Assembly: GCA_964532545.1 (NCBI GenBank)
Contig: CAZHLC010000057.1
Location: 1-11,255, forward strand
From: an uncultured Leptospiraceae bacterium
GTDB taxonomy: Bacteria > Spirochaetota > Leptospiria > Turneriellales > CAZHLC01
Reading direction: 5' to 3'
DNA: 11,255 nt
Below the pieces are notes generated by a model. That model saw only the letters and a program-made list of their open reading frames with translations, was not told where the DNA came from and ran no database searches. A program made the translations under genes and the position numbers. Each line of letters begins with the position of its first letter. The first letter of the stretch is position 1. Positions 1-11,255 of the stretch are shown piece by piece.

Positions 1-1386
1 GATCAGCACACCACCACCGTATTGGCCCCCATGTGCAAAGGCATAGTTGCCCCCACCACCTGTTTTAGCAGAAGGAATCTCTGTGCCGCTAGAATCGTAC
101 TTGCGAACACGCCATGTTGGGCCGCCGATGTCATAGCCAATCACGATGTTATCAGCCGAATCAGTATCAATATTGTAGGGCGTTCCGCCTTCAATGCTCA
201 GTTCACCGGTAGTATTGAAAGTACCATCAGGTGAACCACTGTCATCAAATTTCATAATGCTGGCAGCACCGCCGAGATTGGCAGCCAGTACCACAAAATC
301 ACCATTGTCGATGGCCACATCGCTGGCAGTTTCACCACCACCACCATCATGCACCACGAAGCCACCCAGGCCGAAGGTGACATCAGGCCCGGCTGAACCG
401 GCAGGCGGGCCAAAACCAAATTCGCCCCCCATGCCGAGGCCAGGGTTACGAGATTCCCATAACATAAAGAGATCATGTGAGTTTACAGCATAAAGATTCT
501 GGTTACCGTCGTAGCTCTCACCCGCTGAAAAAACAAAGGCCTGATCTAGCCCATTAGAGTAAGCACTGATAAAAGTAACAAACAGACCGCTCTGAAAAAT
601 GGCTTCATTAAAAGGGAAAATCGGCCCTTCAAAAAAACCAGCTGAGCCAGCATTGACATCACCGCAGCAGGCCTTGTCTTCAGACCACCCGGTAAAGAAA
701 TAGCTGTCAGCTAAAAAAGTAATAGATTCACTAACCGGGGCTATAGATGACACCGAGCTGACCGAGTTATCAGTAAAAGTAGTGATGGTAGTATCAGTAT
801 CAAGATCTGCGACGGTAATGGTGCCCGAAGCCGTATCTTGATAGTAGAGGGCCGGGCTTTGGCCGGCACGGTGTAACATTCCCAGAACCTTACCCGAAGC
901 CTGGCTGCCATCAATATCAACCGTGCCTTCTGAGGTGCTGCCAATGCCGGTATTCGGGTCAATACCAGAAACCACGTAGACCTTACCATCGCTCTTAGTG
1001 TAGACTGCACTCAAACCAAAAGTTGTGTGAACACCGGCGCTAAAACTGATGCGGCTGGTTGAGGTGACTTCGGTGGGGTTACTGTCTTGCACCACATGAG
1101 CCGGTTTTTTAAACTTAGGAAACTGGCCAAAACCAAAATAAGGCCCCACCGATTCAGTTACGTATATCTTATGAGTAGAGCCATCAGAGCGATTTGAAGC
1201 AAAGAAAAGGGTAACAATGCCGCTGCCTTCATCAATCACCACCGCAGGGGCATAATCATCAAAACTTGATGAAATGGGAGAGTTATCTTCGAAAACAAAA
1301 CCGCGATTAAGCTCAGGAACCTTTTTGCTGTTGCCCCCACAATAAAAGGCAAGGCCCACCATAATCACACTTAGTATTTTCTTCAT
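1..1386 (-). CDS. Secreted lipoprotein with Gly-rich beta-propeller (SBBP/delta-60-like) repeats. The N-terminus is at 1386. The 3' end of the gene runs off the window edge (first 462 aa present).
   Basis: The minus-strand frame was translated by hand from the ATG at 1384-1386 to position 1 with no stop codon. The GGAG RBS lies 7 nt upstream (tataGGAGattaaaATG). The N-terminus MKKILSVIMVGLAFYCGG is a signal peptide with a lipobox-like Cys. The body is rich in G/D/T/S with repeated motifs such as VAIDNGDFVVLAANLGGAASIMKFDDSGSPDGTF, typical of SBBP beta-propeller repeats. The ORF track omits it only because it is truncated by the window edge. Confidence 0.75.
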   Translation of the reverse strand, partial: MKKILSVIMVGLAFYCGGNSKKVPELNRGFVFEDNSPISSSFDDYAPAVVIDEGSGIVTLFFASNRSDGSTHKIYVTESVGPYFGFGQFPKFKKPAHVVQDSNPTEVTSTSRISFSAGVHTTFGLSAVYTKSDGKVYVVSGIDPNTGIGSTSEGTVDIDGSQASGKVLGMLHRAGQSPALYYQDTASGTITVADLDTDTTITTFTDNSVSSVSSIAPVSESITFLADSYFFTGWSEDKACCGDVNAGSAGFFEGPIFPFNEAIFQSGLFVTFISAYSNGLDQAFVFSAGESYDGNQNLYAVNSHDLFMLWESRNPGLGMGGEFGFGPPAGSAGPDVTFGLGGFVVHDGGGGETASDVAIDNGDFVVLAANLGGAASIMKFDDSGSPDGTFNTTGELSIEGGTPYNIDTDSADNIVIGYDIGGPTWRVRKYDSSGTEIPSAKTGGGGNYAFAHGGQYGGGVLI

Positions 1387-1531
1387 TTTAATCTCCTATA
1401 GCACAATTCTGTGAATAAAATGTAAAATGACAAGATTTTTTCATCGCCCGTATTTGGCCATAAAATCAATGCTGAATTAGTTAAAGAGGTAAGAGCTATT
1501 GAGAAATACGCAGATTTTTTGGGGGGGAGTC

Positions 1532-2287
1532 TTACACCCGTGATGACAGGGTATCGCGCCCGCCAGACCAGCCATCGGCGATAAAATACGAATAGAATGA
1601 CATCGTTTTCACCACAGTTTTAGACAGGGCGAAAGAAAGCAAGGCGGGTATAGCCCGCAGGGGGTTCACCACCCGGCGGCGATTAAAGGCCCACACCCCT
1701 ACACTGGTCACAGCATGTTCGCGCTCAGCTGGCTGGTAGGTGGTTTCAGCGATCTGTTTCGAAGAAGTAATCTGGCCATCAGGTAACAGGCGAATCACTT
1801 CTTTTTTTGCGGTATCGTCACCCCAGCCTCTTGAATAGACATGGGTGGCATCTGCACCCTGCTGGTGATGGCAGGCCACCAGATGATTCAGATCAAGGTC
1901 TTGCTCGGTGAGGGCGTGATCAGCGGGCATAACCACGATTGAATTATATTTTCTTACAAACCTGCGAAACGCGCGGTTCAAATGGTATTCAAAGGCGAAG
2001 GCCATAACATGGCCCCGGCTGCCGGTCTTCTGAAAGGGCACGGGAACATTTAGTTTGTACAGGCGCTTTTTTAAATAGTCATTCAGGGGTTCAAAAAAGA
2101 CCTCATCGCGGCTCATCACCGCAAAATCAAAATCGGCCTGGTGCTTTTCAATGAAACTGATGGCATCATCAATATAATGCCGACCCTGGTCGGTTTTAAG
2201 CATAACTTTCGGCACCGATAACGGCCCCATGCGGCGCCCGTAGCCAGCAGCCATAATTAAAACCAGAGTGTCAGAGTTCTTTTTCAT
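1532..2287 (-). CDS. Nucleotidyltransferase (NTP_transferase/MobA-IspD-like fold) family protein, 251 aa
   Basis: ORF track. The N-terminal Gly-rich motif TLVLIMAAGYGRRMGPLSVPKVML matches the (L)xxAGxGxRMxxxxPKxL signature of sugar-phosphate nucleotidyltransferases (IspD/GlmU/MobA class). The C-terminal ~60 aa are atypical. No clear SD (CCCCCC) precedes the ATG. Confidence 0.65.
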   Translation of the reverse strand: MKKNSDTLVLIMAAGYGRRMGPLSVPKVMLKTDQGRHYIDDAISFIEKHQADFDFAVMSRDEVFFEPLNDYLKKRLYKLNVPVPFQKTGSRGHVMAFAFEYHLNRAFRRFVRKYNSIVVMPADHALTEQDLDLNHLVACHHQQGADATHVYSRGWGDDTAKKEVIRLLPDGQITSSKQIAETTYQPAEREHAVTSVGVWAFNRRRVVNPLRAIPALLSFALSKTVVKTMSFYSYFIADGWSGGRDTLSSRV

Positions 2288-2332
2288 AAAGGGGGGTAAA
2301 ATTTCAGATTCTGTTCAATACTTAGACGCCAT

Positions 2333-2362
2333 TTGACCTGCAAACCCAAAAAAAAGTATAAT
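2333..2362 (+). promoter_or_regulatory. Sigma70-type promoter: -35 TTGACC (2333-2338), 18-nt spacer, -10 TATAAT (2357-2362). It would drive the membrane-protein/GST genes.
   Basis: Read directly: ttgacc tgcaaacccaaaaaaaag tataat. The -10 is a perfect consensus and the -35 is near-consensus. It lies ~57 nt upstream of the ATG at 2419, in a divergent intergenic region. Confidence 0.55.
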
Positions 2363-2418
2363 AACTTGACGAGAGTTGCAGCGATTCTAGCCATTATATG
2401 CCTATCTAAGGCTTTGAA

Positions 2419-2817
2419 ATGAAACAACCAGCTGACAAACGAGTATTGGCTCTGCTGATTATTCAGGCAATTCTGGTAAACTACCAGTGCTTTTCAGCCT
2501 TTTCAGGCCATGGGGGCGACGAAGCAATGCTGATCGATTTTGGTCTGGCCTTTCTGGCGCTGATCGCTGGCTTTGTGGCGTTTTCAAGCCAACACAGAGT
2601 AGCTTATTTATTTGCAGCCCTTCTTTTCAGTGCCGATGCCCTTTACTGGGCCTACGATTTCTATTCGGTTATTGAATACCTTGATAATTCAAAGCCTGGT
2701 CTAAATTTTTCTGAACAAGTTGATATGGCCCTGAATGCCGCCCAGATGATTCTGGGGGCATTGCTGGCTTTTCTTTTCTTCAAAACTCTTAGTCAAAGCC
2801 CCATACAACCTAACTGA
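2419..2817 (+). CDS. Small integral membrane protein (hypothetical, ~4 predicted TM helices), 132 aa
   Basis: ORF track. Hydrophobic stretches VLALLIIQAILV, FGLAFLALIAGFVAF, YLFAALLFSADALYWAY and ILGALLAFLFF. AAGG lies ~8 nt upstream of the ATG. It sits downstream of the strong promoter. Confidence 0.6.
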   Translation: MKQPADKRVLALLIIQAILVNYQCFSAFSGHGGDEAMLIDFGLAFLALIAGFVAFSSQHRVAYLFAALLFSADALYWAYDFYSVIEYLDNSKPGLNFSEQVDMALNAAQMILGALLAFLFFKTLSQSPIQPN

Positions 2818-2859
2818 AATTCTTCTTGCTGCGACTGCTCAGAAAAGAGCCCTTTACCC

Positions 2860-3543
2860 ATGCTAAAACTCTACGGAACTGCGGCCAGCAACTACTATAA
2901 CAAGGTTAGAATCGCCCTGCTTGAGCGGGGTATTGAATTCGAAGAGATCTTTCAGCCCCCTTCGCAAGAAGAAGAATATCTGCAGAAAAGCGGTATGGGC
3001 AAGATACCATGTATTGAACACAATGGGCAGTTTCTTTATGAGTCTCAGGCCATCATCGAATACCTTGAAGAGGCTTTTACAGAACAACCTTCATTCTACC
3101 CCGCAGACAAAATGCAGCGGGCCATTTGCCGCCAGATCATCAACGTAACTGAACTTTATCTAGACCTGCCATTACGCCCGCTGTTTAACCAGTTTGAAAG
3201 TGGCCAGAAACCAGAGGGCCCTCTTTATGAAAGAGCCCTGCGCACCGTCGAGAAAGCCGCGGTCGCCCTGGGGCGGGTGGTAAAATTCAAACCCTTTATT
3301 ATGGGTGAGCAGATGACCTATGCCGATTGTACGGCGGCAGCTACCTGGTATATTCCCGGTAGGTTGTTAGAGATGGCCGAAACACCCAACCCCCTTGAGA
3401 AGATCGCCGGCTTTAATGAATATATGCAGATGCTCAAAGAAAGGCCCCACATTAAAAAAACCATGCGTAAACGCGATGCTACCTTCAGGGCCCGTAAGAT
3501 GGCCGAGAAAAAAGGCCTGACTAACCCTGAGCTGGCGAGCTAG
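2860..3543 (+). CDS. Glutathione S-transferase family protein, 227 aa
   Basis: ORF track. N-terminal thioredoxin-like GST domain: MLKLYGTAASNYYNKVRIALLERGIEFEE, then the cis-Pro motif GKIPCIEHNG and the ESQAIIEYLEE motif (the ES.AI..YL signature of GST N-domains). An alpha-helical C-terminal domain follows. It is 42 nt downstream of the membrane-protein gene on the same strand, so the two probably form an operon. Confidence 0.85.
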   Translation: MLKLYGTAASNYYNKVRIALLERGIEFEEIFQPPSQEEEYLQKSGMGKIPCIEHNGQFLYESQAIIEYLEEAFTEQPSFYPADKMQRAICRQIINVTELYLDLPLRPLFNQFESGQKPEGPLYERALRTVEKAAVALGRVVKFKPFIMGEQMTYADCTAAATWYIPGRLLEMAETPNPLEKIAGFNEYMQMLKERPHIKKTMRKRDATFRARKMAEKKGLTNPELAS

Positions 3544-3583
3544 TAGGTTGTTGATTTTTTCGAGTATCTTTCAAACACGCAGC

Positions 3584-4036
3584 TCAAAGAATAAGCTTAT
3601 AGGTGAGCATGGTTGAACGTTTGAAACCGTGCTTTTCATAGAGCTTCTGGGCCACAGTATTCTCAAAATCGGTGTGTAGCATCACCCTTTTGCAGTTTCT
3701 TTCTTTTTTTACATACTCAATAGCAAAGCCCAATAGGTCATTACCAATACCGCGACCGCGGTTCGACTCTGCCACGACCACATCATCGAAGAAGGCTACC
3801 GGCCCACCGAGGGCTGTTGAGATATTAAAAAGAACGTTTATCATGGCAATGACCTGGTGATTCTCACGAGCCACCAGAATTAACCCCTGATCTGGGTTTG
3901 CAAAAATCTGCTCAACACCCTGTTGCTGTAAAACACGGTCAGGTTCAAATTCAAGCTCAGCGGTGAAAAGCTCGCCCAGCAAGTCACAGATTTGTTTGAT
4001 CTCTGCTGGCTGCGCTTCGGCAAACTCGACAGCCAT
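3584..4036 (-). CDS. GNAT family N-acetyltransferase, 150 aa
   Basis: ORF track. Acetyl-CoA-binding motif A (VVVAESNRGRGIGNDLLGFAIEY, Q/RxxGxG/A) and a C-terminal YEKHGF motif typical of GNAT. The start ATG (4034-4036) lies 2 nt after the TAA stop (4039-4041) of the upstream large gene, so the two are probably translationally coupled. Confidence 0.85.
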   Translation of the reverse strand: MAVEFAEAQPAEIKQICDLLGELFTAELEFEPDRVLQQQGVEQIFANPDQGLILVARENHQVIAMINVLFNISTALGGPVAFFDDVVVAESNRGRGIGNDLLGFAIEYVKKERNCKRVMLHTDFENTVAQKLYEKHGFKRSTMLTYKLIL

Positions 4037-4038
4037 AA

Positions 4039-7000
4039 TTAAATCTGGGCCCTGATCAAATCTAATGAATAGTTATACTGTGAAGAGAGCACCAGCCTGG
4101 GTGGTTTGGTCTGCTTCTGGCTGTGGCCGAAGTTCCAGAAGCGCGAGAGACGGCGGCCCTCGGCCTCGTTATGATTCACCGGCATGGTCTCATAGTTTCG
4201 CCCACCCGGGTGTGACACAAAGTAAGTACATCCCCCCACTGAGCGTTGCAGAACAGTGTCATAAATATCAAACACCAGCTTCTGTGAAAGCTCGGCATAG
4301 GGGTGCAGGGTGAAGGTCGGGTTCCACCCTTTGTAGCGCACGCCACCTACATAGGTGCCGACCTCATCGGTGGCCCGCAGCGGAACCTGATAGCCATTGC
4401 AGGCAATTTGAAACCTTTCAGTATCGAAGTTAGCCACTTTCACCTGAATACGCTCAACCGCCGAATCGACGGGCCGCGAGGTCTGGCTGGCAAACACAGT
4501 TTCGCCCAGAACATTCCAGGGTTGCAGGGCCGAGCGCAATTCAAGCTCGATACCTTCTTTGGTGATGGCCCCGAGAGTAGGCAGTCGAAACTCAAGAAAA
4601 ACAGAATACCAGTCAGCTGAGAGTAGCTCTTCTTCGTAGTTCACATAGGCCATCACATCAAGAAAATCTTGCCATAGAAAATGGGGCAGCAGAAACTTAT
4701 CGTGTAAACGTGACTGCCAGTGAATCAAACCATGGTGATAGGGCTGCTGGTGAAAGCGCATTAACAGGGTTCGAATCAGCAGCTGCTGGGCTACACACAT
4801 CTGGTAATGGGGCGGCATTTCAAACGAACGCAGCTCAACCAGACCGAGGCGGCCGGTGGCCGAATCGGGCGAATAGAGTTTATCAATGCAGATTTCGGCC
4901 CGGTGGGTATTGCCGGTGATATCAACCAGAAAGTTGCGTAGCAGCCGGTCGAGCACATAGGGGGGCGCATCTTCACGTTTGTCGATCTGCTGCAGGGCCA
5001 GCTCAAGTTCATAAAGAATCTCATCGCGAGACTCGTCAACCCGGGGCGCCTGCGATGTGGGCCCAATAAAGAGACCGGTAAACATATAAGACAAGCTGGG
5101 GTGATGCTGCCAGAAGGTTACCAGGCTGCGCAACAGCGACGGTTCTTTAAAGAAGGGGCTCTTAGCCGCGATGGGCCCACCCAGGGTAATATGATTGCCC
5201 CCACCGGTGCCGGTAATGCGGCCATCGAGTAAAAACTTTTCGGTGCTGAGGCCGGCCAGCTCAGCAGCCTCATAGAGGTTCTGGTAAGTCTCAACCAGCT
5301 CATCAAAGTTGTGCGCCGGATGAATATTCACCTCAATTACCCCCGGGTCAGGAGTAACCTTCAGCACATTGAGGCGCTGGTCAGAGGGTGGTTCGTAACC
5401 TTCAAGAATAATTTCATAACCCAGTTTTGCGGCCACTTCATGCAGGTAAGAAACCAGCGATAAAAACTCATCGAGGGTGACCAATGGCGGCAGAAAAGCG
5501 TAAAGCTTTTCATCACGCACTTCAACACAGAGGGCCGACACAAAAAAGTCTTCTGAAACAGCCTTTGCTTTAAGGTCTTCACTACCCTGACCTGCCTCAC
5601 CCAGTTCATTAAAATTATCATCGGCCTTGGCAATGGGTGCATCGGGGCTCTTCAGTGAATTGATGGGTAGCCGATAGCCCAGGGGTGAATCACCCGGGGT
5701 GGCAAAAAGTTGCTCGCGGGGCAGCTGCCAGGCGCAGGTCTGCCATCTTTTCAGTTTAGGATTAAAACGCAGGGGCAAGACTACCCCTATGCTTTTATCG
5801 AGGCCGGCCTTCTGTATTCTGTGCAGCTTGGCCCATTCGAGTTTTTCAAAATCATTCTCGGGCTCATGCTCTTCGTTAAAATCGTGTAACTTCCACTGGT
5901 AGTACTCGCTGTCTTCAAAAGCAGGCAATGCATACTTCTCTGGCAGGGCCATGGCCTCGCAGAGCTCTCGGTTGAAAATCTGGCAGAGCCCGGTTTCAAA
6001 TTCTTTCTTTTTTATGGGATATTCTGACCACAGAGGCTGGCCTTTTTTTAACCAATACAGGTTCATCGACCAGCGGGGCAGCACCTCGCCGGGGTACCAT
6101 TTTCCCTGAGAGAACTGCAGCAGGGCTGAGCTCGAATAACGATCTTTTAATTCAAATAATAGCTTACGGGCGCACTCATACTTATGCTCACCCAGGGCCT
6201 CAGTATTCCACTGGGCAGAGTCGCGCTCTTCTTTGCCCACAAAGGTGGGCTCGCCCCCCATGGTGAGCTGCAGGCCGGTTTTGCCAAAGAACTTATCGAT
6301 GTTTTCACCAGCCACCACCAGTTTCTGCCACTGCTCAGGGGCATAGGGGCGGGTATGGCGGGGGCGCTCAAGCAGGCGCTCAACCGACATGCTGAAGTCA
6401 AAGTTGACTTCAGCTGCATCGTGGGCCCCGGTGATGGGCGAGGCACTCTGGGGTTCAGGGGTGGCCGCCAGGGGAATATGGCCTTCTGATGCAAACAGGC
6501 CCGAGGTGGCATCGAGGCCTACCCAGCCTGCGCCCGGCAGATAAACCTCGGCCCAGGCGTGCAGGTCGGTAAAATCAGCAGAAAGGCGCTCTTTCTCTTC
6601 GGCGCTCTGCAGATCGGGCACTAATTGAATGAGATAGCCAGAAACGAAGCGGGCCGCCAAGCCCATCTGGCGCAGCATCTGTACCAGCAGATAGGCGCTG
6701 TCACGGCATGAGCCCGAGCCACTTGTCAGGGTTTCGGTGGGGGTTTGCACCCCGGGCTGCATGCGAATCAGATATTTGACATCGCCTGCAATGGCACCCA
6801 CCAGGCCGCTGAGATACTCAACCGTGGGTGTGGCCTCTTTTTTGACAAACTTTGCGGTATAGTTTTTCAACTCAGTTGAATCATCTGAGTGAAAAAGAAA
6901 AGGTTTAAGCTCTTCTTTCAACCAGGGCGGGTACTCAAAGGGTATCTTTTCAGCATATTCTTCAAGAAAAAAATCAAAGGGGTTAATCACCTGCATCTCA

Positions 7001-7248
7001 GCCACCAGCTCAACATCGAACTGCAGCAGATCGGTTTTTTCAGGAAACACAAAGCGCGCCAGGTAATTGCCAAAGGGGTCTTGCTGCCAGTTGATAAAGT
7101 GCTTCTGGGGTTTAACCTCAAGCGAATAAGCGGTTACGTTGGTTTTACTGTGGGGGGCCGGCCGCAGGCGCACCACATGGGGCGCCAGATTGATCTTGCG
7201 ATCATACCTGTAGCTGGTGCTGTGTTTCAGGGCTACCCTGATTGACAT
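4039..7248 (-). CDS. Large transglutaminase-like/DUF2126-type protein, 1069 aa from the preferred ATG. The N-terminus resembles the bacterial transglutaminase N-terminal domain. A Cys-His-Asp transglutaminase-like core follows, then a long C-terminal domain.
   Basis: ORF track, frame 4039..7257. The start is moved to the ATG at 7246-7248 because GAGG lies 9 nt upstream, whereas the GTG at 7257 has no spacing to the same SD. The resulting N-terminus MSIRVALKHSTSYRYDRKINLAPHVVRLRP matches the typical N-terminus of this family. The core is GSGSCRDSAYLLVQMLRQMGLAARFVSGY ... DLHAWAEVYLPGAGWVGLDATSG (catalytic C, H, D). This ~1100-aa architecture recurs in conserved operons with circularly permuted ATP-grasp and alpha-E proteins. 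The DUF2126 label for the C-terminal domain and the operon association rest on established family knowledge, not on anything read here. Confidence 0.85.
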   Translation of the reverse strand: MSIRVALKHSTSYRYDRKINLAPHVVRLRPAPHSKTNVTAYSLEVKPQKHFINWQQDPFGNYLARFVFPEKTDLLQFDVELVAEMQVINPFDFFLEEYAEKIPFEYPPWLKEELKPFLFHSDDSTELKNYTAKFVKKEATPTVEYLSGLVGAIAGDVKYLIRMQPGVQTPTETLTSGSGSCRDSAYLLVQMLRQMGLAARFVSGYLIQLVPDLQSAEEKERLSADFTDLHAWAEVYLPGAGWVGLDATSGLFASEGHIPLAATPEPQSASPITGAHDAAEVNFDFSMSVERLLERPRHTRPYAPEQWQKLVVAGENIDKFFGKTGLQLTMGGEPTFVGKEERDSAQWNTEALGEHKYECARKLLFELKDRYSSSALLQFSQGKWYPGEVLPRWSMNLYWLKKGQPLWSEYPIKKKEFETGLCQIFNRELCEAMALPEKYALPAFEDSEYYQWKLHDFNEEHEPENDFEKLEWAKLHRIQKAGLDKSIGVVLPLRFNPKLKRWQTCAWQLPREQLFATPGDSPLGYRLPINSLKSPDAPIAKADDNFNELGEAGQGSEDLKAKAVSEDFFVSALCVEVRDEKLYAFLPPLVTLDEFLSLVSYLHEVAAKLGYEIILEGYEPPSDQRLNVLKVTPDPGVIEVNIHPAHNFDELVETYQNLYEAAELAGLSTEKFLLDGRITGTGGGNHITLGGPIAAKSPFFKEPSLLRSLVTFWQHHPSLSYMFTGLFIGPTSQAPRVDESRDEILYELELALQQIDKREDAPPYVLDRLLRNFLVDITGNTHRAEICIDKLYSPDSATGRLGLVELRSFEMPPHYQMCVAQQLLIRTLLMRFHQQPYHHGLIHWQSRLHDKFLLPHFLWQDFLDVMAYVNYEEELLSADWYSVFLEFRLPTLGAITKEGIELELRSALQPWNVLGETVFASQTSRPVDSAVERIQVKVANFDTERFQIACNGYQVPLRATDEVGTYVGGVRYKGWNPTFTLHPYAELSQKLVFDIYDTVLQRSVGGCTYFVSHPGGRNYETMPVNHNEAEGRRLSRFWNFGHSQKQTKPPRLVLSSQYNYSLDLIRAQI

Positions 7249-7340
7249 GAAACTCACCCTCTGAAAGTGAGCGGGCCCGTAAAGCAGCTTTGTTTCTTAC
7301 ACCTCATCTTATTCACTGAATAAAATGAAGTTGTTATAAA

Positions 7341-7392
7341 ATAAAAAAGCCCGCCCTTCACCCCTGGCGGGGTGTCGGGCGGGCCGGGTTTT
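7341..7392 (-). terminator. Rho-independent terminator, probably bidirectional, between the SPFH gene/repeat region and the large transglutaminase-like gene
   Basis: Read directly. A-run 7341-7348, stem GCCCGCCC (7349-7356) paired with GGGCGGGC (7377-7384), and an inner stem CACCCC/GGGGTG with loop TGGC. On the minus strand the hairpin is followed by UUUUUUAUUUUAU. On the plus strand it is followed by CGGGUUUU. Confidence 0.6.
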
Positions 7393-7435
7393 AACATCCA
7401 ACCTATGAATCGTTTCGCCCTGGCTTATCGCTCTG

Positions 7436-7573
7436 CAACGCGCCGTTCGAGCGCTATAGCACCCTAAGATTGACTTACCGCTGCCGCGGCGTCAATCTTT
7501 CGGTCAACGCGCCGTTTGAGCGCTGTAGCACCCTAAGATTGACTTACCGCTACCGCGACGTCAATCATTCAGG
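7436..7573. repeat. Tandem direct repeat, 2 copies of 69 bp (7436-7504 and 7505-7573), ~90% identical. Each copy carries an internal 7-bp inverted repeat GATTGAC-N16-GTCAATC.
   Basis: Read directly. Copy 1 is caacgcgccgttcgagcgctatagcaccctaagattgacttaccgctgccgcggcgtcaatctttcgg. Copy 2 is caacgcgccgtttgagcgctgtagcaccctaagattgacttaccgctaccgcgacgtcaatcattcagg. Copy 2 overlaps the last codons and the TGA stop (7565-7567) of the SPFH gene. The plus-strand ORF 7470..8015 reads through the repeats and is an artefact (LTYRCRGVN...LTYRYRDVN). Confidence 0.75.
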
Positions 7574-8674
7574 CTCTTTTACACCGAACAGTTTGTTCAG
7601 CTGCGATAGCAGTGGGGCCCCTGGCGAGATTGACAGGTTGGCAATTTTGTCTGAGATTCGCTCAATGTACTCCAGTTCTTTGAGCTTCATCAGGGTTGGG
7701 TTATTCTCCATCAGCCTGGCAGTATTCAGCAGGCTTCTGGTCGAAGCAGTTTCTTCACGGCGGGTGATCAGGTTAGCCTGGGCTCTTTTTTCAGCCTCGA
7801 TAACCTGGGCCAGTATGGCCTTCATCTCACCAGGCAGAATCACGTCTTTCACACCAGCGAAGATGAACTGCAGACCCATGGCCTCGCCCTGTTCTGCCAT
7901 TTTTTCAAGTACGAAGGTGCCGATTTCTTCTTTTTTTTGCAGCAGCTCTTCAAGGGTAAACATACCCACGTACTCGCGCAGAATCAGCTGGGTAAGCACA
8001 TACAGCTGGGCCTGATAATCGTTGATGTCGATTACGGCCTTGATTGGGTCTACAATGCGATATTGTACCACGAAGTTGATACGTAGGGTTACCTTGTCTC
8101 TGGTCATGATTTCTTGACCTGAGATATCAGTTTGAAGCTGACGCATATCAACCTTCTGTACCACTACCTTTACTGGCCCGTTCCAGAAGAAGTACTTACC
8201 TGGCTTTAGAACTTTTTGAAATTCACCGTTGTACAGCAGCAGGCCACGTTCAAACGAGGCCAGCTCTGCTACCTGAACCAGGCGATGAAAGGCAGGCCCA
8301 ACCAGCACTGCCTTCTCTATGGTTTCAAGCACCTCAGGGTTGCTGAGATCAACGGTCTCAAAACGATTAGTTTTCAGGGCCTTCCAGAAAGCGTATTTGC
8401 CCGCGGTCAGCACCTGAACAAAGCGACCGTCTTCGTAGCGAAGTACAATCTCTTTATCTGCGACTTCTACGACATCAAGTTCTTCTACCAGCTCTTTGTC
8501 TTTCAGGTAGAGGTTTAGATTCTTAGAAGGCGCAAATGGCAGATTTACATCAAAACGTTCAACGCTGTAGTTGGCAAACGGTGAAAACACGTATTTACCA
8601 GGTTTAAGCAGACGCTCAAAGTCGCCGTCTTTGTACAGCAGAGCACGTTCATCTTGATTTACTTTTACTCTCAT
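7565..8674 (-). CDS. SPFH/band-7 (stomatin-prohibitin-flotillin-HflK/C) domain protein, 369 aa. It has no N-terminal TM helix and carries three tandem copies of the SPFH N-terminal beta segment.
   Basis: ORF track frame 7565..8845, with the start moved to the internal ATG at 8672-8674 preceded by a perfect AGGAGG RBS 6 nt upstream (ccTCCTCC on the plus strand at 8681-8686). The track's 5' extension would begin at a TTG and runs through GC-rich palindromes. Band-7 core: QLQTDISGQEIMTRDKVTLRINFVVQYRIVDPIKAV ... IFAGVKDVILPGEMKAILAQVIEAEKRAQ. Internal repeats: ALLYKDGDFERLLKPGKYVFSPF, VLRYEDGRFVQVLTAGKYAFWKAL and LLLYNGEFQKVLKPGKYFFWNGP. Confidence 0.85.
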   Translation of the reverse strand: MRVKVNQDERALLYKDGDFERLLKPGKYVFSPFANYSVERFDVNLPFAPSKNLNLYLKDKELVEELDVVEVADKEIVLRYEDGRFVQVLTAGKYAFWKALKTNRFETVDLSNPEVLETIEKAVLVGPAFHRLVQVAELASFERGLLLYNGEFQKVLKPGKYFFWNGPVKVVVQKVDMRQLQTDISGQEIMTRDKVTLRINFVVQYRIVDPIKAVIDINDYQAQLYVLTQLILREYVGMFTLEELLQKKEEIGTFVLEKMAEQGEAMGLQFIFAGVKDVILPGEMKAILAQVIEAEKRAQANLITRREETASTRSLLNTARLMENNPTLMKLKELEYIERISDKIANLSISPGAPLLSQLNKLFGVKEPE

Positions 8675-8790
8675 TTTCGACCTCCTTTTAAAAATGATTG
8701 CAGTAACGGTCGCAGCAGCAGCCCTCGTAGACCAAAAGACGGAGAACGATTTAAGTAGCAGCGCTTTCTGTGTAACGCAGCCCGCAGCCA

Positions 8791-8826
8791 GGGCCCCGGG
8801 TGAGCGCGAAGCCCAGGCCCCGGGGC
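8791..8826. promoter_or_regulatory. GC-rich dyad-symmetric element upstream of the SPFH gene. It contains a perfect 12-bp palindrome GGCCCCGGGGCC (8815-8826) and a partner GGGCCCCGGG (8791-8800) that can form a 9-bp stem with it. Candidate operator or REP-like element.
   Basis: Read directly: ccagggccccgggtgagcgcgaagcccaggccccggggccgg. No T-tract on either strand, so it is not a terminator. It lies ~120-150 nt upstream of the SPFH start. Confidence 0.35.
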
Positions 8827-9051
8827 CGGCGGCAGGCAGATTCAAACAGGTATTGCTGGTACGGTATCTATCGTTCTGCTGGTTTCTGATTTACTGCCGG
8901 TCTGTGCGCACTGAGCAGGCCCAATTGAACCTGGCCAGAACACATAGCCGGCTGAGAAGCTGGCTACTGCAGCCGGGTAGTGGCAATTTTAACGAGTTGC
9001 CTTCTCGTTCGTAACCGATTAGCAGTCGGGCGCTGAATAATCTTCAGCAAA

Positions 9052-9166
9052 GGTGGGATTCGAACCCGAAAACCTGAATGGTTTTTTACCATGGGGGTAT
9101 CGGAAGGAGTCTAACCTTCGACAGACAGGTTATGAGCCTGTTGCTCTTACACTGAGCTACGTTACC
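9052..9166 (-). tRNA. tRNA-Met(CAU)-like element, aberrant. The 5' half is intact and a T-loop motif is present, but a ~57-nt insertion is embedded and no complementary 3' acceptor strand exists. It is a tRNA pseudogene/relic or a tRNA-mimic ncRNA.
   Basis: Minus-strand read: GGTAACG-TA-GCTC-AGTGTAA-GAGC-A-ACAGG-CTCATAA-CCTGT. This gives an acceptor 5' strand, U8A9, a D-arm, and an anticodon arm with U33, anticodon CAU (plus strand 9132-9134) and A37. It closely resembles the E. coli elongator tRNA-Met sequence as recalled from memory (GGCTACGTAGCTCAG...CTCATAA); no sequence search was run. Next come 57 nt (plus 9068-9124) containing the hairpins GAAGG-TTAGACT-CCTTC and ATGG-TAAAAAA-CCAT. Then GGGTTCGAATCCCACC (plus 9052-9067). 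The expected 3' acceptor strand CGTTACC-N-CCA is absent anywhere nearby. Confidence 0.5.
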
Positions 9167-9270
9167 AAACGTGCATCACCGATTTAACCAGCAAGTATAC
9201 GACAAGGCAGGGCCTCTCGCACTGCAAGACTGTAAAAATCTCTGCGTTAGCCGTGATAATATGATGCAAA

Positions 9271-9291
9271 CCTCACCAGGTTATGGTGAGG
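9271..9291 (-). terminator. Candidate intrinsic terminator for rtcB (8-bp stem CCTCACCA/TGGTGAGG, loop GGTTA)
   Basis: Read directly. On the minus strand the hairpin is followed by UUUGCAUCAUAUUAUC, which is moderately U-rich. It lies ~75 nt downstream of the rtcB stop. A weaker hairpin ACTCG-CGTCT-CGAGT (9316-9330) is followed on the minus strand by UUUCUGUGGCUUUUGG, and another hairpin overlaps the stop codon (9353-9368). Confidence 0.4.
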
Positions 9292-9361
9292 AGAACTGAA
9301 CCAAAAGCCACAGAAACTCGCGTCTCGAGTAGGCAAGCCGCGGCCTTAGTTGGGGATATGA

Positions 9362-10570
9362 TTATCCCTTAACGCAGACGACCTGCTTCAGGCGGTACAC
9401 TGGTTCAACCAGGTCAGCCTGGGCAGCCATGACTGCGTCAATGTTTTTGTAAGCGCCCGGGGTTTCATCAAGCACCGAGGCATCTTTTTTACATTCGACA
9501 CCTTCAGTGGCCTTGACGTGATCTTTCACACTGAAGCGGCGCTTGGCTTCAGAGCGTGACATCACCCGCCCGGCCCCATGTGAGCACGATGAAAAAGACT
9601 GGGGGTTACCCAGACCACGCACAATGTACGACCGTGCACCCATCGAACCGGGTATAATGCCCATCTCACCCTCTCGGGCACTGATGGCGCCCTTACGGGT
9701 AACATAAACATCTTCACCGAAGTGATGTTCAAGTGAAGCATAGTTGTGGTGGCAGTTGATCTCTTTGCCCACAATCTTTGCTTTTTTCTTCAGGCCAGAA
9801 TTGACCGCCTTAAGAACCCTGGCCAGCATAACCTCGCGGTTCAGCGCTGCATATTGCTGGGCCCACTTAACGGCATTCCAGTAATCGTCGAAATTCTGGG
9901 TACCTTCGGTGAGGTAGGCCAGATCTCGATCGGGCAGGCTGGCGTTAGCCTTCAGCATCTCTTCTTTAGCCTTAGAGATGAAGTATGTACCAATCTTATT
10001 GCCAATGCCCCGCGAGCCAGAATGCAGCATCAGCCAGACATTGTCTTCTTCATCAAGGCAGACCTCGATGAAGTGATTGCCACCGCCGAGAGTGCCAACC
10101 TGTTTTGCGGGGTTCTTGGCCGAGCGCAGCTTAGGGTGACGGCTGATGATCTCATCAAACCCCTCACTCACTTTGCGCCAGGCATTCAGTGAAGCCGTAG
10201 GCGCTTCACCAAACTCGCCACCGCGGCCGTTGCCCACGGGCACCAGTTTTTCGATCTCTGCTCGAATGGCACCCAGGTGATCGGGCAAATCAGCAGCATC
10301 GGTGCTGAGTTTTGCGGCAATCATACCACAGCCAAGGTCAACGCCTACAGCTGCGGGTATAATAGCCTTTTTGGTAGGAATCACCGACCCCACAGTGGCG
10401 CCCTTACCAAGGTGGCAGTCAGGCATAAGCGCCACATGCTTATAGATAAAGGGCATTTTGGCGACTTTTTCAGCCTGAATCAGGGTTTGCTCATCGACGG
10501 CGACGCCGTTCGTCCACCGTTTGATGAGCCCGTCTTTGCCGACGTCTCGTTTAACATGTGTCACTTGCAT
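9362..10570 (-). CDS. rtcB: RNA-splicing ligase RtcB (3'-phosphate/5'-hydroxyl nucleic acid ligase), 402 aa
   Basis: ORF track. MQVTHVKRD...HVALMPDCHLGKGATVGSVIPT (metal-binding Cys/His), GGGNHFIEVC, SGSRGIGNKIG, NCHHNYA and SCSHGAGR are all hallmark RtcB motifs, and the length is close to E. coli RtcB. The RBS AGGAGC lies 8 nt upstream of the ATG. Confidence 0.92.
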   Translation of the reverse strand: MQVTHVKRDVGKDGLIKRWTNGVAVDEQTLIQAEKVAKMPFIYKHVALMPDCHLGKGATVGSVIPTKKAIIPAAVGVDLGCGMIAAKLSTDAADLPDHLGAIRAEIEKLVPVGNGRGGEFGEAPTASLNAWRKVSEGFDEIISRHPKLRSAKNPAKQVGTLGGGNHFIEVCLDEEDNVWLMLHSGSRGIGNKIGTYFISKAKEEMLKANASLPDRDLAYLTEGTQNFDDYWNAVKWAQQYAALNREVMLARVLKAVNSGLKKKAKIVGKEINCHHNYASLEHHFGEDVYVTRKGAISAREGEMGIIPGSMGARSYIVRGLGNPQSFSSCSHGAGRVMSRSEAKRRFSVKDHVKATEGVECKKDASVLDETPGAYKNIDAVMAAQADLVEPVYRLKQVVCVKG

Positions 10571-10610
10571 GTGTTTGCTCCTAAATTAGAATTTCGTTCT
10601 TACATGTAAA

Positions 10611-10774
10611 GCAGGGGCCGCCCTTAAAACCCTGGCTTTAAGGGCAGGCCCCTGGCTCTTGAACACCTTTAAATCACACAAGCAGGCGAAAACCCTGAGG
10701 TTTGCTAAACGCAAACCCACGGCCAGAGGGGCCCTGCGGGCTCGTTTTCGCCTGCTTTCGCCCCTGAGGGGCGA
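10611..10774 (-). promoter_or_regulatory. Highly structured intergenic region or rtcB leader. It holds a 15-bp bulged hairpin (10614-10652), a 14-bp long-range inverted repeat (10680-10693 with 10744-10757) enclosing the hairpin GGTTTGC-TAAAC-GCAAACC (10699-10717) and a GC-rich segment, plus the hairpin TCGCCCC-TGA-GGGGCGA (10758-10774).
   Basis: Read directly. GGGGCCGCCCTTAAA[ACCCTGGC]TTTAAGGG(C-A)GGCCCC. AAGCAGGCGAAAAC ... GTTTTCGCCTGCTT are perfect reverse complements. No room is left for a promoter between the first hairpin and the rtcB RBS, which implies read-through or attenuator-type control from upstream. Confidence 0.45.
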
Positions 10775-10784
10775 TACGTGTGCT

Positions 10785-11237
10785 CTAAAGATGTTCGCGG
10801 TGCACAATATGGTCAGCCGCATGGGTTGCAGCGAATGCGTCTGGTTTGACCACAGGCTCAAGGCCAAGGGCCCTGATGTACGCAATCGCTTCTCTGGTTA
10901 CCACGTTTGAGCGGTGCTTTGGGTCTGTATTCAGATCAAGGTGCACCGAAAACGGGCGTGACCCAACTGAGTCTTCAAGAGCCAGCGCGGCCAGGCTGGC
11001 CAGCTCTACTTCTTTCCAGAGCCTTTCTCTCAGTGAAAGACGGCGTTCGATGCGGTTCGTATCATGAAAGATACGCGCCCCGTGCCGCGAATCAATGTGA
11101 ATGATAATCACAGTGACAAAATCTGTGCTCTTGCCCCTTACCTGTGAATCACACCCGACGTAGATTCCTGTTTCTAGAGAAGAGCCCTGAATCATGTTTC
11201 TGATCTTACGATAGTCAAAATCAAGTGTCAGTCTCAT
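10785..11237 (-). CDS. Hypothetical protein, 150 aa, co-oriented immediately upstream of rtcB. It may have an RNase H-like alpha/beta fold with acidic residues, but this is speculative.
   Basis: ORF track. Strong RBS AGGAGAG 5 nt upstream of the ATG. Pattern GIYVGCDSQ ... VTVIIIHIDSRHG ... HLDLNTD ... HAADH (a hydrophobic strand followed by D-S, with later acidic/His clusters). No confident family assignment is possible without a search. Coordinates follow the track. My manual indexing of the last lines is off by 1 nt. Confidence 0.6.
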   Translation of the reverse strand: MRLTLDFDYRKIRNMIQGSSLETGIYVGCDSQVRGKSTDFVTVIIIHIDSRHGARIFHDTNRIERRLSLRERLWKEVELASLAALALEDSVGSRPFSVHLDLNTDPKHRSNVVTREAIAYIRALGLEPVVKPDAFAATHAADHIVHREHL

Positions 11238-11255
11238 TGAACTCTCCTATTTTTT

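Follow-up and report, generated by a model that had tools for sequence, protein, structure and literature searches.

YrlA and the predicted b7a-tRNA are both tRNA-like RNAs encoded beside the RNA ligase RtcB, and are believed to assist cells in dealing with damage to their RNA. YrlA (Rfam RF02553; Chen et al. 2014, PMC4201824) is a bacterial Y RNA, one domain of which resembles a tRNA, and for which a Ro-binding motif, GNCGAAN0-1G, has been defined (PMC4201824) and a role as adaptor, decoy or competitor in the RNA-damage response has been proposed (PMC7790460; PMC4201824). In M. smegmatis, RNase P cuts YrlA open, and the RNA acquires a CCA (PMC4201824). The b7a-tRNA, according to the account given in Wang et al. 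(2018, bioRxiv 10.1101/312249), was predicted by Burroughs and Aravind (2016) beside RtcB and a Band-7 protein; the same account describes it as not validated and as sometimes replaced by YrlA.

Here we describe a candidate of the latter kind in an uncultured Leptospiraceae bacterium (assembly GCA_964532545.1). The window, i.e. the whole stretch of DNA analysed, comprises 11,255 nt of a metagenomic contig (CAZHLC010000057.1, positions 1 to 11,255) and carries, all on its minus strand, the succession RNaseH-like gene, rtcB, tRNA-like RNA and Band-7/SPFH gene. The RNA had been described in an earlier note as the 5' half of a tRNA-Met(CAU) bearing a ~57-nt insertion. According to our analysis, positions 9092-9166 of the minus strand probably encode a complete, L-shape-competent tRNA-like RNA of the b7a-tRNA class, a tRNA mimic that would work with RtcB and the Band-7 protein. 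A longer structured RNA is predicted between the two genes, with this RNA as its first domain.

A complete cloverleaf between rtcB and the Band-7 gene

The two flanking genes, and the cloverleaf with its parts, are as follows:

9362..10570, minus strand: rtcB, encoding a 402-aa RNA 3'-phosphate/5'-OH ligase (Pfam PF01139 RtcB, full length, E = 2.8e-127)
7565..8674, minus strand: Band-7/SPFH gene (slipin family), 369 aa (Pfam PF01145, E = 5.2e-31)
9092..9166, minus strand: tRNA-like cloverleaf (ARAGORN; Rfam RF00005; minimum-free-energy fold; model R1, described below, 84.4 bits as one of its seed sequences; covariation over 30 members)
9166-9160 (GGUAACG) with 9102-9096 (CGAUACC), minus strand: acceptor stem, 7 bp with one A5:A68 mismatch
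Between the acceptor 5' strand and the D-arm, minus strand: U8A9, read from the sequence
9157-9143, minus strand: D-arm GCUC-AGUGUAA-GAGC (cloverleaf fold)
9141-9125, minus strand: anticodon arm ACAGG-CUCAUAA-CCUGU, with CAU at 9134-9132 (cloverleaf fold)
9124-9120, minus strand: variable loop CUGUC (cloverleaf fold)
9119-9103, minus strand: T-arm GAAGG-UUAGACU-CCUUC (cloverleaf fold)
9095, minus strand: discriminator C, followed by an encoded CCA at 9094-9092

ARAGORN calls a 75-nt tRNA-Met(CAU) at 9092-9166, and the Rfam tRNA model (RF00005, gathering score 29 bits) matches 9095-9166 over model positions 1-71 of 71, with 60.8 bits and E = 1.9e-11. The cloverleaf is also the minimum-free-energy structure of the isolated 75-nt RNA, where it accounts for 57% of the ensemble. 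Read down from 9166, the minus strand gives GGUAACG UA GCUC-AGUGUAA-GAGC A ACAGG-CUCAUAA-CCUGU CUGUC GAAGG-UUAGACU-CCUUC CGAUACC C CCA. The fold is thus built from 75 contiguous nucleotides, with no intervening sequence of the kind found in intron-containing or split tRNAs.

All the pieces named in the earlier note are present on the minus strand (GGTAACG, U8A9, the D-arm, the anticodon arm, GAAGG/CCTTC, ATGG/CCAT, GGGTTCGAATCCC at 9067-9055 and the GCTGAA hairpin), and it is their assembly that has to be revised. GAAGG/CCTTC, taken for a hairpin standing in place of the variable loop, is the T-arm itself, and the true variable loop is CUGUC. The acceptor 3' strand, reported as missing, is CGATACC, which pairs with GGTAACG. 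As the T-arm and this strand both lie inside the claimed ~57-nt insertion, there is no such insertion; the element looked like an unclosable, insertion-bearing tRNA because the T-arm had been mis-assigned. The cloverleaf said to be unable to close is recovered by ARAGORN, RF00005 and the minimum-free-energy fold, and such a canonical fold, acceptor stem included, from tRNA-finding tools (here ARAGORN and Rfam) is the result that the earlier note had itself named as contradicting its reading. The near-consensus T-arm that it reported is a real hairpin but no part of the tRNA, being located 25 nt beyond the CCA; the sequence past this second T-arm, CCCACCUUUGC, cannot pair with GGUAACG, as was claimed.

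The elbow of the molecule departs from consensus. Instead of the universal G18, G19, U55 and C56, the window copy has a D-loop with G18-U19 and a T-loop (UUAGACU) with A56. The D-loop GG is missing from two of the 67 tRNAs and tRNA-like sequences of the loci fetched for comparison, namely the window copy and one other RtcB-linked tRNA-like. A U19-A56 Watson-Crick pair is possible, and the elbow fold is probably kept despite these non-consensus residues. Among 30 aligned family members (see below), the window is the only one to combine U19 in the D-loop with A56 in the T-loop, the others all having G19 and C56. We read U19-A56 as a compensatory swap of the 19-56 tertiary pair G19-C56, and this replacement, although a single case, argues for selection acting on the elbow, and hence on the L-shape. 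Bacterial tRNA-Met and tRNA-Ile2 normally carry A73; the C73 discriminator is atypical of either of them, and so is the A5:A68 mismatch.

A family of tRNA-like RNAs at RtcB/Band-7 loci

The window was compared with 160 RtcB loci fetched from genomes and metagenomes (these and other related loci are cited below by L numbers), in 33 of which a Band-7 homolog adjoins rtcB. Two layouts occur. In Methylomicrobium and allies, the order is that of the window, i.e. rtcB, tRNA(s), Band-7, while in Acidovorax and other beta-proteobacteria a tRNA-like precedes Band-7 and rtcB, with a sigma-54 promoter upstream. Loci of the Methylomicrobium type always have a pair of abutting tRNAs with one nucleotide in common. 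The second tRNA of the pair has the anticodon CAU and gives a good alignment with the window tRNA. The shared nucleotide is the A of the first CCA and the +1 of the second tRNA (L020:5284-5431, L041, L076, L131, L135, L155, L111), and the first tRNA-like of these pairs has a variable anticodon loop (CCA, CCG, UGG), with U33 lost in L041 and L135. Upstream of the window tRNA, no match to a degenerate first tRNA of this sort was obtained with Rfam at E up to 10 or with R1.

R1 is a cloverleaf covariance model built from nine of these RNAs. All 31 loci with sufficient DNA contain an R1 element on the Band-7 strand, upstream of that gene; 30 of these elements score at least 43 bits and the last one (L015) 40.6 bits. 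The 100 RtcB loci without Band-7 yielded eight weak R1 matches (23-36 bits) adjoining rtcB, which are probably YrlA-type, the rest being ordinary tRNA arrays. Some Band-7 relatives (L167, L169, and L170) have the RNA with no rtcB within the fetched DNA.

Over the 30 aligned members, pairing is observed in 92% of cells (69.5% in shuffles), 15 of the 21 pairs show changes on both sides, and the covariation score reaches 0.583 (shuffles, 0.166; slid controls, no more than 0.114), these values being drawn from an alignment fitted to the model and from sequences that are related to one another. A 7-nt anticodon loop is present in only nine members (CAU in seven, AGU in one, and UGG in one). The other 21 have lost it: 20 carry a GNRA tetraloop (GCAA or GAAA) in its place, and L080 a different, longer cap. 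Many members also have an acceptor stem of only 3-5 bp and no free CCA. The D-arm (UAGCUCA..AGAGC) and the T-loop (GGUUCGA.UCC), by contrast, are near-invariant across the family, and the window shares with the other members its D-arm (UAGCUCAG..AGAGCAAC), its variable loop (CUGUC) and its T-arm. Because the anticodon loop is mostly lost while the D-arm and T-loop hardly vary, this pattern indicates that the family retains the body of a tRNA and not its decoding function.

Relation to b7a-tRNA and to YrlA

As far as the b7a-tRNA is described in bioRxiv 10.1101/312249, the window RNA agrees with it in four respects: it adjoins a Band-7 gene on the same strand (7565-8674), rtcB (9362-10570) lies immediately upstream, its sequence and structure are homologous to those of Band-7-linked members (R1, shared arms), and YrlA-like units take its place in relatives of the window. 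Likenesses to YrlA exist as well, since the window RNA is a probable tRNA mimic beside rtcB with the same conserved D-arm and T-arm sequences, and its encoded acceptor end resembles the free end of the RNase P-opened M. smegmatis YrlA. However, the window domain has an open acceptor end and a closed anticodon loop, and is not circularly permuted: its order is D-arm, anticodon arm, T-arm, in keeping with the earlier remark that the module order is unlike that of YrlA. RF02553 has no match within 8850-9400, even with E values of up to 10 allowed. In place of the Ro-binding motif GNCGAAN0-1G the window has AUCGGUG, and no rsr (Ro60) gene is present among the ten open reading frames (ORFs) of the window scanned against Pfam, as the earlier note had also observed. 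The downstream module described below (T-arm, hairpin, 4-bp stem-loop) resembles the permuted order of YrlA only loosely.

Because the features described for b7a-tRNA are found here and those of YrlA are not, we assign the window RNA, on the basis of that account, to the predicted b7a-tRNA kind. It is an additional member of a kind already known by computational prediction. The earlier suggestion of a tRNA-mimic noncoding RNA of the Ro/Y-RNA type was right in spirit, since the element belongs to a tRNA-like family tied to RtcB and Band-7, but it is not YrlA itself. Within the family, the window represents a sub-type with a 7-bp acceptor stem, an encoded CCA, a CAU loop, the U19-A56 swap and a downstream module with T-arm and anticodon-arm elements, whereas most of the collected members have short acceptor stems and a tetraloop for anticodon loop.

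The closest Band-7 relatives (L163-L166 and L169) are 59-69% identical to the window protein. Four of these loci (L163, L164, L166, and L169) show, at the equivalent position, Rfam YrlA matches of 33-44 bits, below the RF02553 gathering score of 69 bits. These YrlA-like units are circularly permuted, with the order T-arm, closed acceptor hairpin, D-arm, and lie between flanks homologous to those of the window. The same flanking blocks thus enclose a unit of normal topology in the window and a permuted one in L163, L164, L166 and L169. One further locus comes from a cultured firmicute, Dehalobacter sp. DCM (L171, CP092282), in which the noncoding RNA is followed by Band-7 and RtcB, with a divergent RtcR-like sigma-54 activator next door. 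The RNA of this locus consists of a T-arm, a closed hairpin, a degenerate D-arm and an anticodon-like arm, i.e. a tRNA permuted at the variable loop.

Flanking structures and the downstream module

In the longer RNA between rtcB and Band-7, a leader helix would be followed by the tRNA-like domain, then by a short hairpin and the second T-arm; next would come another hairpin, one that resembles an anticodon arm, a small one and finally a long leader. Its elements outside the tRNA-like domain are as follows:

9193..9228, minus strand: conserved leader helix CUUGCAGUGC-(hairpin)-GUAUACUU, whose 3' side carries a 2-nt bulge; predicted helix, aligned with L164, L166, L169, L167, L170 and L171
9174..9192, minus strand: block GCUGGUUAAAUCGGUGAUG, conserved and immediately 5' of the tRNA-like domain (alignment and nhmmer)
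9078..9092, minus strand: hairpin AUGG-UAAAAAA-CCAU, beginning at the A of CCA and containing AUGGUAAA, which is conserved in relatives
9055..9067, minus strand: second T-arm-like hairpin GGG-UUCGAAU-CCC, first element of a separate downstream module, outside the tRNA
9032..9048, minus strand: hairpin GCUGAA-GAUUA-UUCAGC, between the second T-arm and the anticodon-arm-like hairpin
9015..9029, minus strand: anticodon-arm-like hairpin CCGA-CUGCUAA-UCGG, whose 7-nt loop fits CU-NNN-AA
8981..9007, minus strand: small hairpin CGAG-AAGGCAA-CUCG then UUAAAAUUGCC, corresponding to GAAG-AGGAUGA-CUUC then UAAAAA..UCC in relatives (alignment and model R2)

The upstream flank matches that of the nearest relatives through the helix CUUGCAGUGC-hairpin-GUAUGCUG and the block GGUUAAAUCGGUGAUG. 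An nhmmer profile built solely from L163, L164, L166 and L169 matches the window at 9259-9103 (E = 5e-10), a match that includes the leader helix. At the position equivalent to 9174..9192, L166 has a YrlA-type Ro-binding motif, AUCGAAUG, where the window has AUCGGUG. No Rfam family matches the leader helix. Spirochaete- and firmicute-type loci have a helix CUUrCAGUGC-hairpin-GUAUGCUG, with a 2-nt bulge, ahead of their tRNA-like domains (window 9193-9228, minus strand; L164:4327-4373; L166:4456-4516; L169:3311-3345; L167:3566-3603; L170:2701-2738; L171:3598-3635), and beta-proteobacterial loci an analogous CGGUGC-hairpin-GCAUGCCG.

Beyond the CCA, the minus strand reads UGG-UAAAAAA-CCAU UCAGGUUUUC GGG-UUCGAAU-CCC ACCUUU GCUGAA-GAUUA-UUCAGC G CCGA-CUGCUAA-UCGG. 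A short hairpin directly after the tRNA-like domain is also found in other members, for example CUACC..GGUAG in Methylomicrobium, and others in beta-proteobacteria. The second T-arm is collinear with the second T-arm (GCAGG-UUCGAGU-CCUGC) of L163, L164 and L166, being located 22-26 nt after AUGGUAAA in all of them. The hairpin at 9032..9048 corresponds in place to a 13-nt insert in L164 and to a hairpin in L171. It was correctly reported in the earlier note (on the minus strand GCTGAA-GATTA-TTCAGC, 9048-9032) as lacking a U-tract after it, and because no U-tract follows it is not a terminator. Counterparts of the anticodon-arm-like hairpin, with varying stems, are CCGA-CUGUAAA-UCGG in L166, GCGA-CUGUAAA-UCGC in L164, CGUGU-CUGAUAA-ACACG in L169, CGC-CUAAAGA-GCG in L163 and CCUU-CUGGAAA-AAGG in L170.

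A structure model of the downstream module (R2), built without the window or L164, retrieves L164 as a control at 45.5 bits. Its best match in the window is at 9050-8982 (22.8 bits, E about 0.009), with the 9032-9048 hairpin in the T-arm slot. If the second T-arm were the start of a YrlA-like permuted domain, its third element would be a 4-bp stem with an anticodon-like loop and no GG, and Rfam YrlA finds no match there.

Proposed function and points against it

We suggest that the RNA would be made together with rtcB or just after it, a weak terminator-like hairpin following that gene, and would then be released by tRNA-processing enzymes (RNase P plus 3' trimming). The window copy should be a good RNase P substrate, given its U at -1, its 7-bp acceptor stem and its encoded CCA. 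The released RNA would work by its tRNA shape (elbow and acceptor/T helix) and not by decoding. Its likeliest role would be that proposed for YrlA, namely adaptor, decoy or competitor in the RNA-damage response, and the tRNA-recognising proteins coupled by it would be RtcB, tRNA-targeting nucleases or the Band-7 protein. The discarding of the anticodon loop, together with the switching between normal and permuted topologies, narrows the possible mechanisms towards shape recognition. The window RNA is the most tRNA-like form of the family, at a place where close relatives hold a permuted form, and its full acceptor stem, encoded CCA, CAU loop and compensated elbow pair make it a convenient experimental handle.

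Several observations weigh against a tRNA mimic of the b7a-tRNA class. The window copy resembles a working tRNA in its CUCAUAA loop, 7-bp acceptor stem and encoded CCA, and the distant loci of the Methylomicrobium type retain a CAU loop as well; the CAU subgroup, including the window, may have a role via its anticodon loop, even aminoacylation. The class assignment itself relies on a description of b7a-tRNA that is paraphrased in bioRxiv 10.1101/312249. In the genome and metagenome scans the nearest RtcB relative is 69% identical, and they gave no near-orthologous locus to inform the fine details. Finally, the region beyond the tRNA appears to be a conserved second module holding a second T-arm, for which downstream homology is moderately supported. 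The best window match of a downstream-only sequence profile (nhmmer, 9069-8981) is weak (E = 0.1), and the counterpart of the relatives' second T-arm differs by alignment, being GGGUUCGAAUCCC, the 9032-9048 hairpin (R2) or the tRNA's own T-arm (nhmmer). We provisionally favour GGGUUCGAAUCCC, since the conserved blocks then retain both their order and their spacing. The tRNA's own T-arm is a less likely counterpart, as it breaks the collinearity and spacing with AUGGUAAA.

Alternative explanations

The element could be an ordinary elongator tRNA-Met(CAU), or a tRNA-Ile2 in which C34 becomes lysidine, located between rtcB and Band-7 by chance. The complete cloverleaf (60.8 bits, above the RF00005 gathering score), the canonical CUCAUAA loop with U33 and A37, the lengths of the variable loop and of the acceptor stem (7 bp), the encoded CCA and the presence of U8, A14, G15:C48, G53:C61, U54, U55 and A58 are all those expected of a canonical tRNA-Met(CAU). 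However, G18-U19 and A56 stand where such a tRNA has G19 and C56, and GG is missing in only 2 of the 67 compared sequences; the A5:A68 mismatch and C73, where A73 is normal for bacterial tRNA-Met and tRNA-Ile2, point the same way. The context fits a chance location poorly: the copy lies within a conserved noncoding RNA whose homologs are mostly devoid of an anticodon loop, its D-arm and variable loop match those of these Band-7-linked tRNA-likes, its place upstream of Band-7 is conserved across phyla, and both of its flanks are homologous to non-tRNA RNA of relatives. We consider an ordinary tRNA unlikely.

The element could also serve as "tRNA punctuation", RNase P and 3' processing splitting the rtcB and Band-7 mRNAs, with cleavage or the leader controlling Band-7 and the released RNA having no job of its own. 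Such a role would account for the constant location of the element on the Band-7 strand, within the long 5' leader of that gene, and for the conservation of the remaining leader within groups. It would also suit the RNase P-substrate features of the window copy (U at -1, 7-bp acceptor stem, CCA), and RNase P is known to cleave M. smegmatis YrlA (PMC4201824). Yet the many members with 3-5 bp acceptor stems and no free CCA should be poor RNase P substrates, and the near-invariant D-arm and T-loop, together with the compensated 19-56 pair, point to an elbow recognised in trans, beyond the needs of a cleavage signal. Punctuation without a further job thus seems quite unlikely, although punctuation as such is compatible with a tRNA mimic of the b7a-tRNA class, the two being not mutually exclusive.

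According to a more elaborate and very doubtful scenario, RtcB would act on the RNA directly, joining the ends of the permuted forms in the anticodon region; RNase P would then open their acceptor hairpin to yield a "sentinel" tRNA(CAU)-like RNA. Cleavage and re-ligation of this sentinel would report or buffer attack by anticodon nucleases, and the window would encode it already in its mature topology, perhaps even aminoacylated, all of these steps sharing the same low likelihood. Circularly permuted tRNA genes occur in Cyanidioschyzon merolae, and the maturation route of such a sentinel would resemble theirs. The present loci are comparable in that normal or permuted tRNA-like units occupy orthologous positions next to an RNA ligase gene; unlike the C. 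merolae tRNAs, the relatives' forms are YrlA-like, have a closed acceptor hairpin and stems that continue into the flanks, and are known from sequence alone.

The earlier reading of a tRNA 5' half with a ~57-nt insertion, either a pseudogene or relic or an RtcB-spliced precursor, draws on the consensus-like T-arm GGGUUCGAAUCCC 25 nt beyond the CCA and on the inability of the following CCCACCUUUGC to pair with GGUAACG, but is refuted, as two independent tools close the cloverleaf without an insert, the fold is thermodynamically preferred, the downstream T-arm does not duplicate that of the tRNA itself (and hence is no att-site repeat), no integrase or insertion sequence (IS) gene occurs among the ten ORFs scanned, and the downstream hairpins have counterparts in relatives. 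The version of this reading in which the element marks an old integration site meets the same objections, since the downstream T-arm does not copy the tRNA 3' end and none of the ten ORFs is an integrase or mobile gene, and is further opposed by the occurrence of the element at the same place in many distant genomes. An integration scar flanked by att repeats was also considered and rejected: the second T-arm GGGUUCGAAUCCC is unlike the tRNA's own GAAGGUUAGACUCCUUC, and there is no integrase among the ten ORFs scanned and no plasmid match to 8850-9400.

Gene neighbourhood and regulatory signals

Two further features were recorded:

10785..11237, minus strand: RNaseH-like gene (PF04308, YkuK/DUF458; Pfam E = 2e-26), upstream of rtcB
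9271..9291, minus strand: hairpin CCTCACC-ATAACCT-GGTGAGG then TTTGCATCAT, ~70 nt past the rtcB stop, read from the sequence

None of the 160 related loci has an RNaseH-like homolog adjoining RtcB, and this gene is probably outside the conserved system and part of the context only. Among the ten ORFs scanned in this 11-kb contig, no Ro/Rsr (TROVE), RtcA, RtcR, integrase or IS gene was found, a distant rsr remaining possible; the rsr, rtcA and rtcR genes that the earlier note proposed to look for in the wider locus are thus not among these ORFs. BLASTN of 8850-9400 gave no match against plasmids and a single one against phages, of 61 nt, reflecting generic tRNA similarity; neither search points to a mobile element as the source.

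The hairpin at 9271..9291 looks like a weak terminator, and L164 and L166 likewise have a hairpin plus U-rich tract after rtcB; the consensus terminator scan did not call it. Scans for consensus sigma-70 promoters and terminators near the element gave nothing convincing, and the search for sigma-54 promoters in the window nothing above chance. Sigma-54 promoters are seen in relatives, one of which has an RtcR-like activator.

Band-7 starts at the ATG at 8674, preceded by the ribosome-binding site AAAGGAGG, and the leader between the tRNA-like domain and this start is ~417 nt long. The leader contains, at ~8780-8850 on the minus strand, a very G+C-rich, partly palindromic stretch (GCCGGCCCCGGGGCC...CCCGGGGCCC), which falls within a spurious upstream extension of the Band-7 ORF. 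A database protein (P0001), present on two short duplicate contigs, is identical to the window Band-7 protein over all 369 aa, while an exact-protein look-up with the window RtcB returned no record. The N-terminal ~140 aa of the Band-7 protein, before the SPFH domain, contain three repeats resembling LLYxDGxFxxxLxPGKYxFW and no obvious membrane segment, which suggests a soluble protein with an uncharacterised N-terminal domain.

Other tRNA genes occur near rtcB. Directly upstream of it, the closest relatives have either Gln(UUG) and Asp(GUC)-like genes or a Lys(UUU) gene (L164:2649-2840, L165:25-216, L081:2348-2540, L166:3076-3146). The Asp(GUC)-like gene has no D-loop GG and an odd anticodon loop (UUGUCUG), and may also be a mimic. 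Nothing comparable to a tRNA-like gene was found in the 214 nt separating the RNaseH-like gene from rtcB in the window. Finally, several RtcB loci adjoin tRNA-gene arrays of ordinary appearance, with as many as 17 genes in L125 (L125:225-2021; L008:65-511; L053:2259-2907; L070:7357-8872; arrays also in L126 and L127), which constitute a second, different link between tRNA genes and RtcB.

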